Shown here: one piece after another, positions 40,286 through 45,437 of the stretch
Layout: every line of letters starts with the position of its first letter
How positions within the stretch are numbered: position 1 is the first letter of the stretch
From: Escherichia coli O127:H6 str. E2348/69
Lineage (GTDB): Bacteria; Pseudomonadota; Gammaproteobacteria; Enterobacterales; Enterobacteriaceae
Reading direction: 5' to 3' (one strand)
Assembly: GCF_000026545.1 (NCBI RefSeq)
Contig: NC_011601.1
Length of the DNA: 64,000 bases
The notes under the pieces: generated by a model
The model's database searches: none
The model's input: the letters and a program-made list of their open reading frames with translations, nothing else
Told to the model about the DNA's origin: nothing
Position numbers and translations under genes: made by a program

Positions 40286-41788
40286 ATGCTGAAAAGGAAA
40301 AAAGTAAAACCGATTACCCTTCGTGATGTCACCATTATTGATGATGGTAAACTGCGTAAAGCCATTACCGCAGCATCACTGGGTAATGCAATGGAATGGT
40401 TCGATTTTGGTGTTTATGGTTTTGTTGCTTACGCATTAGGTAAAGTTTTTTTCCCGGGGGCTGACCCCAGCGTGCAGATGGTTGCTGCACTCGCCACTTT
40501 CTCCGTTCCCTTTCTGATTCGACCGCTTGGCGGGCTCTTCTTTGGTATGTTGGGCGATAAATATGGTCGCCAGAAGATCCTCGCTATCACTATTGTGATT
40601 ATGTCGATCAGTACGTTCTGTATTGGCTTAATACCGTCCTACGACACGATTGGTATTTGGGCACCGATTCTGCTGTTGATCTGTAAGATGGCACAAGGTT
40701 TCTCGGTCGGCGGTGAATATACCGGGGCGTCAATATTTGTTGCGGAATACTCCCCTGACCGTAAACGTGGCTTTATGGGCAGCTGGCTGGACTTTGGTTC
40801 TATTGCCGGGTTTGTGCTGGGTGCTGGCGTAGTGGTGTTAATTTCGACCATTGTCGGCGAAGCGAACTTCCTCGATTGGGGCTGGCGTATTCCGTTCTTT
40901 ATCGCTCTGCCGTTAGGGATTATCGGGCTTTACCTGCGCCATGCGCTGGAAGAGACTCCGGCGTTCCAGCAGCATGTCGATAAACTGGAACAGGGCGACC
41001 GCGAAGGTTTGCAGGATGGCCCGAAAGTCTCGTTTAAAGAGATTGCCACCAAACACTGGCGCAGCCTGTTGACATGTATTGGTCTGGTAATTGCCACCAA
41101 CGTGACTTACTACATGTTGCTGACCTATATGCCGAGTTATTTGTCGCATAACCTGCATTACTCCGAAGACCACGGGGTGCTGATTATTATCGCCATTATG
41201 ATCGGTATGCTGTTTGTTCAACCGGTGATGGGCTTGCTGAGTGACCGTTTTGGCCGTCGTCCGTTTGTGCTTCTTGGTAGTGTTGCACTGTTTGTGTTGG
41301 CGATCCCGGCGTTTATTCTGATTAACAGTAACGTCATCGGCCTGATTTTTGCCGGCTTATTGATGCTGGCGGTGATCCTTAACTGCTTTACGGGCGTTAT
41401 GGCTTCTACCTTGCCAGCGATGTTCCCGACGCATATCCGTTACAGCGCGCTGGCGGCGGCATTTAATATTTCGGTGCTGGTTGCCGGTCTGACGCCAACG
41501 CTGGCGGCCTGGCTGGTCGAAAGCTCGCAGAATCTGATGATGCCTGCCTATTACCTGATGGTAGTGGCGGTGGTTGGTTTAATCACCGGCGTAACCATGA
41601 AAGAGACGGCGAATCGACCGTTGAAAGGTGCGACACCAGCGGCGTCAGATATACAGGAAGCGAAGGAAATTCTCGTCGAGCATTACGATAATATCGAGCA
41701 GAAAATCGATGATATTGACCACGAGATTGCCGATTTGCAGGCGAAACGTACCCGCCTGGTGCAGCAACATCCGCGAATTGATGAATAA
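40286..41788 (+). CDS. proP: Proline/glycine-betaine:proton symporter (MFS osmosensor)
   Basis: Start at ATG MLKRKKVKPITLRDV (track begins at upstream TTG); C-terminal coiled-coil. Confidence 0.93.
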   Translation: MLKRKKVKPITLRDVTIIDDGKLRKAITAASLGNAMEWFDFGVYGFVAYALGKVFFPGADPSVQMVAALATFSVPFLIRPLGGLFFGMLGDKYGRQKILAITIVIMSISTFCIGLIPSYDTIGIWAPILLLICKMAQGFSVGGEYTGASIFVAEYSPDRKRGFMGSWLDFGSIAGFVLGAGVVVLISTIVGEANFLDWGWRIPFFIALPLGIIGLYLRHALEETPAFQQHVDKLEQGDREGLQDGPKVSFKEIATKHWRSLLTCIGLVIATNVTYYMLLTYMPSYLSHNLHYSEDHGVLIIIAIMIGMLFVQPVMGLLSDRFGRRPFVLLGSVALFVLAIPAFILINSNVIGLIFAGLLMLAVILNCFTGVMASTLPAMFPTHIRYSALAAAFNISVLVAGLTPTLAAWLVESSQNLMMPAYYLMVVAVVGLITGVTMKETANRPLKGATPAASDIQEAKEILVEHYDNIEQKIDDIDHEIADLQAKRTRLVQQHPRIDE

Positions 41789-41802
41789 GCTGAAACGGAT
41801 GG

Positions 41803-41828
41803 CCTGATGTGACGCTGTCTTATCAGGT
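41803..41828 (+). terminator. Hairpin after proP stop (cctgat...atcagg), possible terminator/REP-like
   Basis: Inverted repeat read directly. Confidence 0.35.
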
Positions 41829-41838
41829 CAATTGAACT

Positions 41839-41855
41839 CTTAAGGTTCACTTAAT
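41839..41855 (+). promoter_or_regulatory. PmrA (BasR) box upstream of pmrR
   Basis: CTTAAG-N5-CTTAAT direct repeat, ~45 bp upstream of pmrR ATG. Confidence 0.65.
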
Positions 41856-41899
41856 CTCTGACGCGCATACTCTCCTCCAGGTTAACGGAGGAGAGTGCA

Positions 41900-41989
41900 A
41901 TGAAAAACCGTGTTTATGAAAGTTTAACTACCGTGTTCAGCGTGCTGGTGGTCAGCAGCTTTCTTTATATCTGGTTTGCCACGTACTGA
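41900..41989 (+). CDS. pmrR: Small membrane peptide PmrR (29 aa)
   Basis: ATG preceded by GGAGGAG; MKNRVYESLTTVFSVLVVSSFLYIWFATY is a single TM helix; not in the ORF track (<60 aa). Confidence 0.75.
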   Translation: MKNRVYESLTTVFSVLVVSSFLYIWFATY

Positions 41990-43056
41990 TCTTTTTTCAG
42001 CCGTATACAGGCCCGCGTGCCGGAAGTCTCTTGCCGGTTTTGCAGGAAAAAATGCCCGTGATGCAACTGTGTAATGCGGCTGACAATACTTAACCCCAGA
42101 CCAATCCCGCCATAACGGCTGTCCATTCGTACAAACGCTTTACTCAACTCCCCGCATTTACTCTCATCAATACCCGGTCCTTCATCTTCAACGGCCATGA
42201 CCGCTCCGCCATCTTCTTGCAGCTTAATCATAATGTTGCTGCCTTGTGGGCTATAACGATGGGCGTTTTCTACCAGGTTTCGCAATAACATCCGCAGCAG
42301 GGTTGCATCACCCTGAACGGTGATGTCGGCGGCGCTCTCTGGCAATAGCAGGGTTTGCTGGCGCTGGTCGAGCATGGTACTAAGTTCGTCATACGAGGGG
42401 AGAATGACATCTTCCAGCAGTTTTACATGTTGATAATTACCGGAAGAAAATGACTGTCCGGCACGCGCCAGTTGCAGCAGCTGGGAGACGCTCTCCATCA
42501 TCTGATCAAGTCGTGCCACTAACGGTGCTACATCAATGTGATGCGTTTTCGCCAGCAGTTCCAGATGCAAACGCACCCCCGCCAGTGGCGTTCGCAGTTC
42601 GTGCGCGACGTCAGCGGTAAACAACCTTTCGTTATCCAGCGTGCTGGTCAGGCGACTGACCAGATCGTTTAACGCCGAAACCACCGCATCGATTTCGAGG
42701 GTGGCGCTATGAATGGCAATGGGCGTTAAGTTGTCGGCGGTGCGCGCTTCCAGCTCTTTTTGCAGCTCCGCCAGCGGTCGGGTGATGCGGCGTACCGCCT
42801 GATAGCAGATAAATAGCGTCAGGCTAACCATAAAGACGCCGGGGACAATCAGGCTGGCGACCGCCTCGCGGATCTCACGCATGATGTGGCGATCGTTGTT
42901 GCGATTGTCGCGTAACGCCTGCTCAAACAGCTGAATCTGCTCGGTACTTTCATGCCATAGCCAGAAGACGCTGATCAGCTCGAATACCAGCAGAATAGCC
43001 CCAATGGTCAATATCAGCCGTTGACGTAGTGATATTGGTTGGCGTAAAAAGCGCAT
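41965..43056 (-). CDS. basS: Sensor histidine kinase BasS/PmrB
   Basis: HAMP, HisKA (H-box AHELRTP) and ATPase domains; start taken 3 codons inside the track ORF. Confidence 0.9.
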   Translation of the reverse strand: MRFLRQPISLRQRLILTIGAILLVFELISVFWLWHESTEQIQLFEQALRDNRNNDRHIMREIREAVASLIVPGVFMVSLTLFICYQAVRRITRPLAELQKELEARTADNLTPIAIHSATLEIDAVVSALNDLVSRLTSTLDNERLFTADVAHELRTPLAGVRLHLELLAKTHHIDVAPLVARLDQMMESVSQLLQLARAGQSFSSGNYQHVKLLEDVILPSYDELSTMLDQRQQTLLLPESAADITVQGDATLLRMLLRNLVENAHRYSPQGSNIMIKLQEDGGAVMAVEDEGPGIDESKCGELSKAFVRMDSRYGGIGLGLSIVSRITQLHHGHFFLQNRQETSGTRACIRLKKDQYVANQI

Positions 43057-43065
43057 CAGATTCAA

Positions 43066-43734
43066 TTAGTTTTCCTCATTTGCGACCAGCATATAGCCAA
43101 ATCCGCGCACGGTGCGGATACGGGCTTTGCCCACTTTGTCGCGCAGGTTATGGATATGCACTTCCAGGGTGTTGGTCGAGGGCTCGTTGTCCCAGTTGTA
43201 GATATCGTTGTAGAGAATTTCCCGATGCACCGGGCTGCCTGCTTTAAGCATCAGGCGCGACAGCAGAGCATATTCTTTGGGCGTCAGAATCAGTTCTTCT
43301 CCGCTCATCCATACCTGGCGGCGACCCATATTCAGCGTCAGGTTGCCAACGTTCAGCTCACTTTCGCCCTGATTATTATGGCGTCGTAGCAGGGCGCGGA
43401 TACGGGCGTGCAACTCTTCCAGCGCAAAAGGCTTCACCAGATAATCGTCGGCCCCGACATCCAGCCCGGCGATTTTGTCGGTAAGGGTATCGCGGGCGGT
43501 GAGAATTAACACCGGCAGAGTGTATTTTTTCTGCCGGATACGGGCAAGAAAATGCAGCCCATCTTCATCGGGTAAGCCTAAATCCAGTACCACCAGGCTG
43601 TAATGACCGGCCTCAAGGCTTTGTTCCGCCATCCGCGCGGTGCTCACGCCATCGCACGCGTAGCCTTCGGTTTGCGCCGCCAGAATCAATCCCTGCAATA
43701 ACAGCGTATCGTCTTCAACAATCAGAATTTTCAT
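43066..43734 (-). CDS. basR: Response regulator BasR/PmrA (OmpR family)
   Basis: 222 aa receiver plus winged-helix domain. Confidence 0.93.
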
Positions 43735-45374: not shown

Positions 45375-45420
45375 CACGGTGTTTCCATCGAACAAAGTGC
45401 GCATATGCTCGCAAAGCAAA

Positions 45421-45437
45421 ATTAAGCCAACCTTAAG
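45421..45437 (-). promoter_or_regulatory. PmrA (BasR) box of the eptA-basRS promoter
   Basis: Minus-strand CTTAAGGTTGGCTTAAT, ~47 nt upstream of the chosen eptA ATG. Confidence 0.7.

Follow-up and report, generated by a model that had tools for sequence, protein, structure and literature searches.

The 64-kb window analysed here, meaning the whole stretch of DNA that was studied, is 100% identical to Escherichia coli E2348/69, and within it the end of proP and the convergent eptA-basRS operon flank a very short gene, pmrR. A 701-nt query around pmrR was found in 5412 of 5426 complete E. coli genomes. The genes of the locus, together with a palindrome whose 14-nt arms (41800-41813 and 41817-41830) are 79% complementary, lie as follows.

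Ending at 41788, plus strand: proP (RefSeq).
41800-41830, both strands: imperfect palindrome resembling a REP element, in the interval from the proP stop (41788) to the PmrA box (inverted-repeat search).
41900-41989, plus strand: pmrR coding sequence, 'LpxT activity modulator PmrR', a 29-amino-acid membrane peptide (open reading frame list, RefSeq, profile match, UniProt).
41965-41989, both strands: 25-nt overlap of the pmrR and basS coding sequences (open reading frame list and RefSeq).
41965-43065, minus strand: basS/pmrB sensor kinase coding sequence, the last gene of eptA-basRS (open reading frame list and RefSeq).
43066-43734, minus strand: basR (RefSeq).
From 43731, minus strand: eptA (RefSeq).

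The initial annotation had named the small open reading frame (ORF) pmrR and described it as 29 codons long, with one membrane segment and a strong Shine-Dalgarno (SD) sequence, and all of this is borne out. The ORF starts with ATG and its 29 codons specify MKNRVYESLTTVFSVLVVSSFLYIWFATY, a 29-amino-acid product whose hydrophobic run, LTTVFSVLVVSSFLYIWFA, makes one membrane segment. The name is right: the peptide matches the NCBIfam model NF033224 over its full length (1-29) with 74.2 bits against a cut-off of 30 (E = 5e-21), and both RefSeq and UniProt (entry PMRR_ECOLI) call it PmrR, while Pfam holds no family for it. The gene stands tail-to-tail with basS, in a position convergent to and abutting the pmrB 3' end, and its overlap with the 3' end of minus-strand basS, put earlier at about 25 nt, is exactly 25 nt. 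Kato et al. reportedly described PmrR of Salmonella and E. coli in 2012 as a PmrA-activated inhibitor of LpxT, and their work is said to be the source of the LpxT biochemistry. We find no difference between that known system and the E. coli gene here, which is the same gene: a 29-amino-acid membrane peptide with a PmrA-box promoter, encoded convergently to pmrB beside proP.

Upstream of the ORF, and partly within it, lies a compact set of regulatory elements, listed here with the corresponding element of the neighbouring operon.

41831-41996, plus strand: match to Rfam RF02052 'STnc630 sRNA', covering the pmrR promoter and gene (182 bits, gathering score 55, model positions 1-166 of 166).
41839-41855, plus strand: PmrA (BasR) box CTTAAG-GTTCA-CTTAAT of the pmrR promoter (pattern search, conservation, published deletion in PMC8129183).
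41866-41871, plus strand: pmrR -10 element CATACT, 10 nt downstream of the box (alignment).
41869-41896, both strands: hairpin ACTCTCCTCC-N8-GGAGGAGAGT (inverted repeat, folding, covariation, Rfam STnc630 structure).
41878-41880, plus strand: predicted PmrA-dependent transcription start, 7 nt downstream of the -10 element, at the first bases of the hairpin loop.
41887-41893, plus strand: pmrR SD sequence GGAGGAG, 6 nt before the ATG, its GG invariant across genera (sequence).
45421-45437, minus strand: second PmrA box, upstream of eptA, in promoter P1 of eptA-basRS (pattern search; operon promoters in PMC8129183).

The CTTAAG-N5-CTTAAT PmrA box that had been proposed ahead of the ORF is present at 41839-41855, and it has been deleted experimentally (PMC8129183). 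The pattern YTTAAK-N5-YTTAAK matches twice in the 64-kb window, at pmrR and at eptA, against 0.07 matches expected by chance, and the box occurs in all 55 pmrR loci compared below, with 61-66 nt from its start to the ATG. Across an alignment of 51 sequences (columns 29-34) the hexamer that follows reads nAnACT: T6 never varies, and A2, A4 and C5 each reach at least 90% conservation. A2 and A4 persist even in sequences whose hairpin does not pair them, which points to a role as a -10 element. Downstream of the eptA box the spacing is again 10 nt, to GAGCAT. A promoter scan found neither a -35 element nor a canonical sigma-70 promoter at pmrR, as expected of an activator-dependent promoter. In promoters of the PhoB/OmpR family the pho box lies 10 bp upstream of the -10 element. 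Such promoters, like those of pmrR and eptA here, replace the -35 element by a direct-repeat box that ends 10 nt before the -10 element; no difference was found, and the pmrR promoter is ordinary for its family. Judged from this spacing, pmrR transcription is predicted to start at about 41879, a position that coincides with the +86 boundary of Xu et al. 2021 (41879).

Much of this has experimental precedent. A 2021 Frontiers in Microbiology paper draws both the PmrA-box promoter and the overlap and describes the operon promoters (PMC8129183). Its authors deleted only the PmrA box, sparing the operon, and a pmrA-constitutive strain thereby became polymyxin-susceptible and deoxycholate-resistant; polymyxin resistance was restored by deleting lpxT or by supplying pmrR ectopically, and the box deletion abolishes PmrR function (PMC8129183). 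The peptide and LpxT together explain that phenotype in full. In a preprint on small proteins under Mg2+ starvation, E. coli PmrR is translated, PmrR-6xHis is found in the membrane fraction, and a plasmid with a start-codon mutation fails to complement (PMC11429745). The growth defect of the pmrR deletion is LpxT-independent (PMC11429745), so LpxT inhibition may not be the whole of the peptide's function. Xu et al. 2021, for their part, mention the 25-bp overlap. The pmrR gene, its PmrA-box promoter and its overlap with basS are therefore already published and are not new here.

To place the locus in its family, we used a BasS-based scan with one genome per species, which returned 80 loci; Salmonella is not among them, and the Rfam consensus serves as a Salmonella-like stand-in. 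An ORF of 26-33 codons that fits the PmrR pattern (a hydrophobic core, F21 and W25 without exception, and [TS][YF] at the C terminus) runs convergent to the basS 3' end in 55 of the 80. These come from Escherichia, Citrobacter amalonaticus, Klebsiella, Raoultella, Kluyvera, Kosakonia, Phytobacter, Pseudocitrobacter, Trabulsiella and Yokenella, and from several Enterobacter-like isolates, a Pantoea and an Erwinia metagenome-assembled genome (MAG), and no such ORF was found in the Pectobacterium, Rahnella, Rouxiella and other more distant loci of the scan. The recurrence of ORF, box and spacing in 55 loci from many enterobacterial genera puts the arrangement far beyond chance. Because proP neighbours pmrR only in Escherichia and C. 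amalonaticus among these loci, pmrR travels with pmrB and not with proP. The syntenic 30-amino-acid ORFs of Klebsiella, Raoultella, Kluyvera, Kosakonia and Phytobacter (MQKINFREYLAVATALVIIVAFFHQWVLTF in K. pneumoniae) share the promoter architecture and the F..W motif with PmrR; they score below the NCBIfam model and appear as 'hypothetical protein' in all sources.

The overlap itself is far less constant than the arrangement that contains it. Between the two coding sequences it ranges from -8 to +57 nt over the 55 loci. It is longest in Pseudocitrobacter (57 nt), followed by some Kosakonia (42), Escherichia (25), Klebsiella (22), and C. amalonaticus and Raoultella (4 each); in the remaining loci it is 0 to -8. 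The BasS tail past the conserved ...RAWV+F motif varies in both length and sequence, and its Escherichia form, ...DQYVANQI*, is simply what pmrR ...IWFATY* yields when read in reverse. Nor do the last 42 basS codons of six Escherichia show added constraint at synonymous sites: 14 of 42 codons vary, against 0.41 overall. On these comparisons the 25-nt coding overlap is a by-product of a drifting basS stop codon and not a conserved functional unit; what is conserved is the way in which pmrR and its promoter sit tightly nested within the 3' region of pmrB. In some genera, as in K. pneumoniae, Pseudocitrobacter and Kosakonia, the PmrA box is directly bordered on its far side by a canonical terminator in the pmrB orientation, so that there the whole of pmrR and its promoter lies inside the pmrB 3' untranslated region (UTR). 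A strict terminator scan gives about 9 loci with a terminator abutting the box, and 11 of 55 with a match in the pmrB direction anywhere in the 120 nt scanned. Several more pmrB-oriented terminators with long loops are visible by eye and are excluded from this count.

Between the PmrA box and the ORF lies a perfect 10-bp inverted repeat, with arms at 41869-41878 and 41887-41896, which folds at about -20 kcal/mol on either strand and belongs to the Rfam STnc630 consensus structure. Its 5' arm consists of the 3' part of the -10 element and an anti-SD sequence, and its 3' arm is the SD sequence. In 51 distinct sequences 82% of cells are paired, versus 74% in shuffles and at most 50% when the arms are slid, and the covariation score was exceeded by none of 500 shuffles. 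Covariation is seen at 3-4 pairs, the covarying columns being 35-56 (AU 17, CG 15, GC 6, GU 6), 36-55 and 29-62, and almost all loci keep the stem with differing sequences (CTCTCC/GGAGAG, CTATCC/GGATAG, CTGTCC/GGACAG, CTGCCC/GGGCAG). As a candidate intrinsic terminator the hairpin was set aside: it has the stem but no U-tract, the stem being followed by GCAATGAAAAA on the plus and by ATGCGCGTCAG on the minus strand, and the terminator scan does not report it. Folding predicts different fates for different transcripts. In a fragment representing the predicted own mRNA of pmrR (minimum free energy, MFE, -16.7 kcal/mol) the left arm is absent, no such stem forms and the SD sequence is free, whereas in a longer read-through RNA (MFE -36.1 kcal/mol) the perfect stem forms.

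The contrast between these two folds recalls the insertion sequences IS10 and IS50, in which fold-back inhibition is said, in work credited to Davis, Simons and Kleckner in 1985 and to Krebs, Schulz and Reznikoff, to protect the element from outside transcription. In both IS10/IS50 and pmrR the ribosome-binding site can pair, through an inverted repeat, with bases just upstream of the transcription start, which for pmrR is a predicted one. In the insertion sequences only transcripts from the native promoter are translated and read-through is silent, which for pmrR is a proposal by analogy; the gene protected there is a transposase, whereas pmrR is a chromosomal regulon member. Fold-back insulation of this kind is our preferred reading of the hairpin; we infer the insulating role, and the start site on which it depends is predicted. 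A start upstream of 41869 would place the hairpin inside the pmrR leader itself. The reading fits the cost of untimely PmrR: the peptide slows growth when expressed without stress (PMC11429745), and LpxT inhibition costs deoxycholate resistance (PMC8129183). The hairpin also persists in the genera where a terminator abuts the box and read-through should be scarce, an observation that counts against insulation.

We therefore regard the locus, with high though not complete confidence, as the known gene pmrR, whose short-leader mRNA, driven by PmrA, makes the LpxT-inhibiting peptide and whose hairpin blocks translation of read-through RNA. Phosphorylated PmrA (BasR) binds CTTAAG-N5-CTTAAT, which stands in for the -35 element 10 nt upstream of CATACT. 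Starting near 41879, transcription would yield a leader of about 21 nt with the strong SD sequence exposed, and the 29-amino-acid LpxT inhibitor would be made; this peptide accounts for the known phenotypes. RNA initiated by PmrA would lack the 5' arm of the hairpin and be translatable. Read-through RNA, coming from proP in E. coli, would contain both arms, so that its ribosome-binding site would be buried, and in E. coli it ends 5 nt past the stem. The hairpin, which probably silences read-through transcripts, would thus keep PmrR off unless PmrA is active, and we infer no significant antisense effect on basS.

Mapped RNA ends bear on this account and on its alternatives. They were transferred from MG1655, where pmrR occupies 4332116-4332205 and the window coordinate equals the MG1655 coordinate minus 4290216.

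41896-41904, plus strand: mapped RNA 3' terminus, dominant position 41901 (TRS 'Internal pmrR' peak 4332112-4332120, dominant 4332117; PMC10687069).
41990-42089, plus strand: 3' UTR of the pmrR strand, antisense to the basS 3' coding region (TRS Supplementary Data 4, 'primary' terminus 4332305).
42090-42190, plus strand: C-rich, G-poor stretch (39% C, 10% G), a possible Rho utilisation region.

The first of these ends, which lies 5 nt past the hairpin, has been attributed, citing SEnd-seq, to an upstream-gene (proP) transcript that ends inside pmrR (PMC10687069). The primary pmrR terminus corresponds to window position 42089, which lies 125 nt inside basS and about 100 nt downstream of the pmrR stop, with a 3' UTR listed as 101 (PMC10687069), and the Rfam STnc630 model ends at 41996, in a T-run after the pmrR stop and 32 nt into basS. 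Both positions lie beyond 41965, so the earlier suggestion that RNA from the pmrR strand runs antisense to basS finds support. The TRS 3' ends were mapped in LB cultures; under those conditions the PmrA promoter is probably quiet and the plus-strand RNA is probably mostly proP read-through. By terminator scan and composition, no intrinsic terminator accounts for the end at 41996 or the one at 42089; speculatively, on composition, the C-rich stretch at 42090-42190 may be a Rho utilisation region. A weak terminator-like site of 6 pairs within the ORF (41943-41957, plus strand) was rejected, no mapped 3' end supporting it.

A further set of data comes from the pmrB constructs of Xu et al. 2021, whose end points, counted from the pmrB stop, can be placed on the pmrR promoter: +86 falls at 41879, the predicted start, and leaves no promoter; +103 falls at 41862 and includes the -10 element without the box; and +126 falls at 41839, the first base of the box. 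The conversion is validated by +176, which corresponds to the whole 176-bp intergenic region here. With colistin, +86 was susceptible, being the longest construct without resistance, while +103 gave 4 ug/mL and +126 gave 16 ug/mL (Xu et al. 2021). The pmrB mRNA of +126 was about 315-fold above that of +86 in a host that keeps its chromosomal pmrR; the half-life of that mRNA was equal in +86 and +126, and the construct with the ORF only had the most mRNA (Xu et al. 2021). The coincidence of the end points with pmrR promoter elements suggests a simple re-interpretation of that work. Since the chromosomal pmrR was present, the change of about 315-fold is hard to accommodate in a purely peptide-based view. 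The +86 end point also halves the hairpin stem, which +103 restores.

An alternative to fold-back insulation is that the hairpin serves chiefly as an RNA 3'-end or stability element, protecting the end of proP mRNA in Escherichia and forming a structured element in the eptA-basRS 3' UTR everywhere; its overlap with the -10 element and the SD sequence would then be incidental, a consequence of the very short leader. The mapped end just past the stem, with its attribution to the upstream gene, is what such an element would leave, and the lowest pmrB mRNA with the halved stem (+86) and the partial resistance once it is restored (+103) agree with it. The stem has the same stability on either strand, and its G-U wobble pairs show no strand bias (48 in the pmrR sense versus 53 antisense), so that it might act just as well for the basS 3' UTR, or for both strands at once. 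Against this, the missing U-tract on either side means that it is not an intrinsic terminator, the mRNA half-life was unchanged in the Xu constructs, and the stem is found in all genera although proP adjoins it only in Escherichia and Citrobacter amalonaticus. The stem always pairs the SD sequence exactly with the bases before the predicted start, a register that end protection does not need. We treat this explanation as a tentative one that falls short of probable.

A second alternative, close to the feedback layer that the initial annotation had raised, is that PmrA-driven transcription of pmrR acts in cis on basS, through an RNA duplex (RNase III processing or protection) or polymerase collision, giving feedback that does not depend on the peptide. 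With pmrR and its promoter nested in the 3' region of eptA-basRS the transcripts necessarily overlap, as the positions 41996 and 42089 illustrate, and the tight convergent nesting in 55 loci leaves no room for a terminator between the genes. ExcludonFinder (NAR 2025, PMC12288877) lists pmrR-basS among 165 convergent transcript-overlap pairs of MG1655, counting those whose overlap shows in half or more of 58 RNA-seq samples from that strain. The match of the Xu end points to promoter elements, the minimal inhibitory concentration (MIC) rising in step and the roughly 315-fold change in pmrB mRNA also point this way. Several results do not. After the box deletion arnT mRNA was still induced about 50-fold, as before, and the phenotype was rescued in trans (PMC8129183); that strain is pmrA-constitutive, a setting where the BasS level barely matters, which limits the argument. 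The equal half-lives and the high mRNA of the ORF-only construct in Xu et al. 2021 also speak against action on basS, as do the unconserved overlap length and the unconstrained basS 3' codons, and the mapped ends come from LB, with the PmrA promoter probably quiet.

Comparison with the convergent excludons of Listeria, and with GadY/gadX in E. coli, leads the same way. These resemble pmrR-basS in having convergent genes with transcripts that overlap at their 3' ends, but excludons are defined by mutually exclusive expression, whereas pmrR and basS are both activated by PmrA (through the boxes at 41839 and 45421) and induced together: in E. coli adapted to iron, eptA, basR and pmrR all go up. 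This joint induction, unlike that of a classical excludon, argues against the cis-acting explanation, and a literature search found no published RNase III dependence or partner effect for pmrR-basS. On balance we think such an effect on basS unlikely. A broader proposal, in which the pmrR peptide, a cis action on the basS mRNA 3' end and a translation-gating hairpin would form one dual-function module throughout the Enterobacteriaceae, Klebsiella included, strikes us as rather improbable.

There remains the question of what the Rfam family represents. The RF02052 consensus itself holds the PmrA box, SD sequence, ATG and whole ORF, which means that STnc630 is pmrR with its promoter, entered under a different name. 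It resembles the locus in matching it end to end (41831-41996) and in a consensus structure that includes the -10/SD hairpin; it is typed as an sRNA, whereas the locus consists of a promoter and a conserved translated ORF and so is not non-coding. That a non-coding small RNA, STnc630, is encoded here instead of, or besides, a protein-coding mRNA is thus very hard to credit despite the full-length, 182-bit match, given the coding signals within the consensus, the conservation of the peptide across genera with F21 and W25 invariant, the published translation and peptide-dependent complementation (PMC11429745), and a literature search for STnc630 that gave no paper.

The preferred account, a PmrA-driven peptide gene shielded by a fold-back hairpin, matters because PmrAB controls lipid A remodelling and polymyxin/colistin resistance. 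PmrR decides the fate of lipid A position 1, between diphosphorylation by LpxT and phosphoethanolamine from EptA, and this choice trades polymyxin resistance against bile resistance. Three results seem worth keeping: the remapping of the Xu boundaries, the anti-SD/SD hairpin embedded in the promoter, and the unannotated PmrR-like ORFs of Klebsiella and its relatives, which have the same arrangement of promoter and hairpin and belong to the bacteria in which colistin resistance is of greatest concern. If the nested arrangement tunes BasS levels, it would add feedback at the RNA level to a clinically important two-component system, and such tuning, if true, would explain the puzzling need for the region downstream of pmrB in BL21-derived colistin resistance. 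Were the dual-function module real, a hard-wired device for RNA-level feedback and insulation would be attached to PmrAB across the Enterobacteriaceae, including Klebsiella.

The pmrR gene is represented in Rfam under another description. A full-length match (182 bits) to RF02052, 'Enterobacterial sRNA STnc630', spans 41831-41996 (+), and because the consensus of this family takes in the PmrA box, the hairpin between the -10 and the Shine-Dalgarno sequence, the ATG and all of the pmrR ORF, the family is the pmrR gene together with its promoter, apparently mistyped as an sRNA. Among complete E. coli genomes, this 166-nt core reaches at least 99% identity in 5233 of 5409 records, while the surrounding 701 nt (41600-42300) reach 99% identity in only 486 of 5413; the flanking ends of proP and basS (pmrB) are thus less conserved than the core.

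Syntenic 30-aa ORFs, such as MQKINFREYLAVATALVIIVAFFHQWVLTF, are found on the opposite strand just downstream of basS in other genera, among the basS loci (L001-L081) of a BasS-based scan of one genome per species. They occur in K. pneumoniae (L019), the K. oxytoca group (L025, L026, L031), Raoultella (L012, L015), Kluyvera (L043, L045, L053), Kosakonia (L041, L062) and Phytobacter (L030, L032). These ORFs have in common a PmrA box, a -10, the hairpin and an F..W..[TS][YF] motif, fall short of the threshold of the NCBIfam PmrR model, and carry the label 'hypothetical protein' in all sources; they are therefore probably unrecognised PmrR orthologues.

Canonical terminators oriented with pmrB, each a hairpin followed by a T-run, directly adjoin the PmrA box on its distal side in L019, L011, L013, L018, L046, L048, L052 and L024, which places the entire pmrR gene and its promoter within the pmrB 3' UTR at these loci. 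In K. pneumoniae (L019), T-rich bases of the PmrA box also give the terminator hairpin a tail in the opposite direction. In E. coli, the pmrB subclones of Xu et al. 2021 end 126, 103 and 86 nt past the pmrB stop, that is, exactly where the PmrA box begins (41839), 4 nt upstream of the pmrR -10 (41862) and at the predicted pmrR start (41879). The completeness of the pmrR promoter parallels the graded colistin MICs reported for these subclones (16 at +126, 4 at +103, susceptible at +86).

Beyond the conserved ...RAWV+F motif, BasS C-termini across L001-L081 differ among genera in length and sequence. The last residues of Escherichia BasS, DQYVANQI, are the pmrR C-terminus read on the reverse strand (41965-41995, -), and the pmrR/basS overlap in Escherichia is a product of stop-codon drift. 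Antisense to basS, 42090-42190 (+) is 39% C and 10% G and lies directly 3' of the mapped plus-strand end at 42089; by composition it looks like a candidate Rho utilisation region.

Two further features:

41800-41830: imperfect REP-like palindrome GGCCTGATGTGAC...GTCTTATCAGGTC, in the interval from the proP stop to the PmrA box
45395-45437 (-): region of the eptA promoter, with PmrA box CTTAAGGTTGGCTTAAT

Variants of the palindrome are present in related Escherichia loci. The eptA box is separated from a -10-like GAGCAT by 10 nt, a spacer equal to that of pmrR. The TTG at 45419, given as the eptA start in an ORF listing, abuts the PmrA box, so the true start is the downstream ATG, as in RefSeq.

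Neither the impaired growth of E. coli lacking pmrR under low Mg2+ nor the toxic effect of overexpressed PmrR is reported to depend on LpxT (PMC11429745), which hints that the PmrR peptide has a second target.
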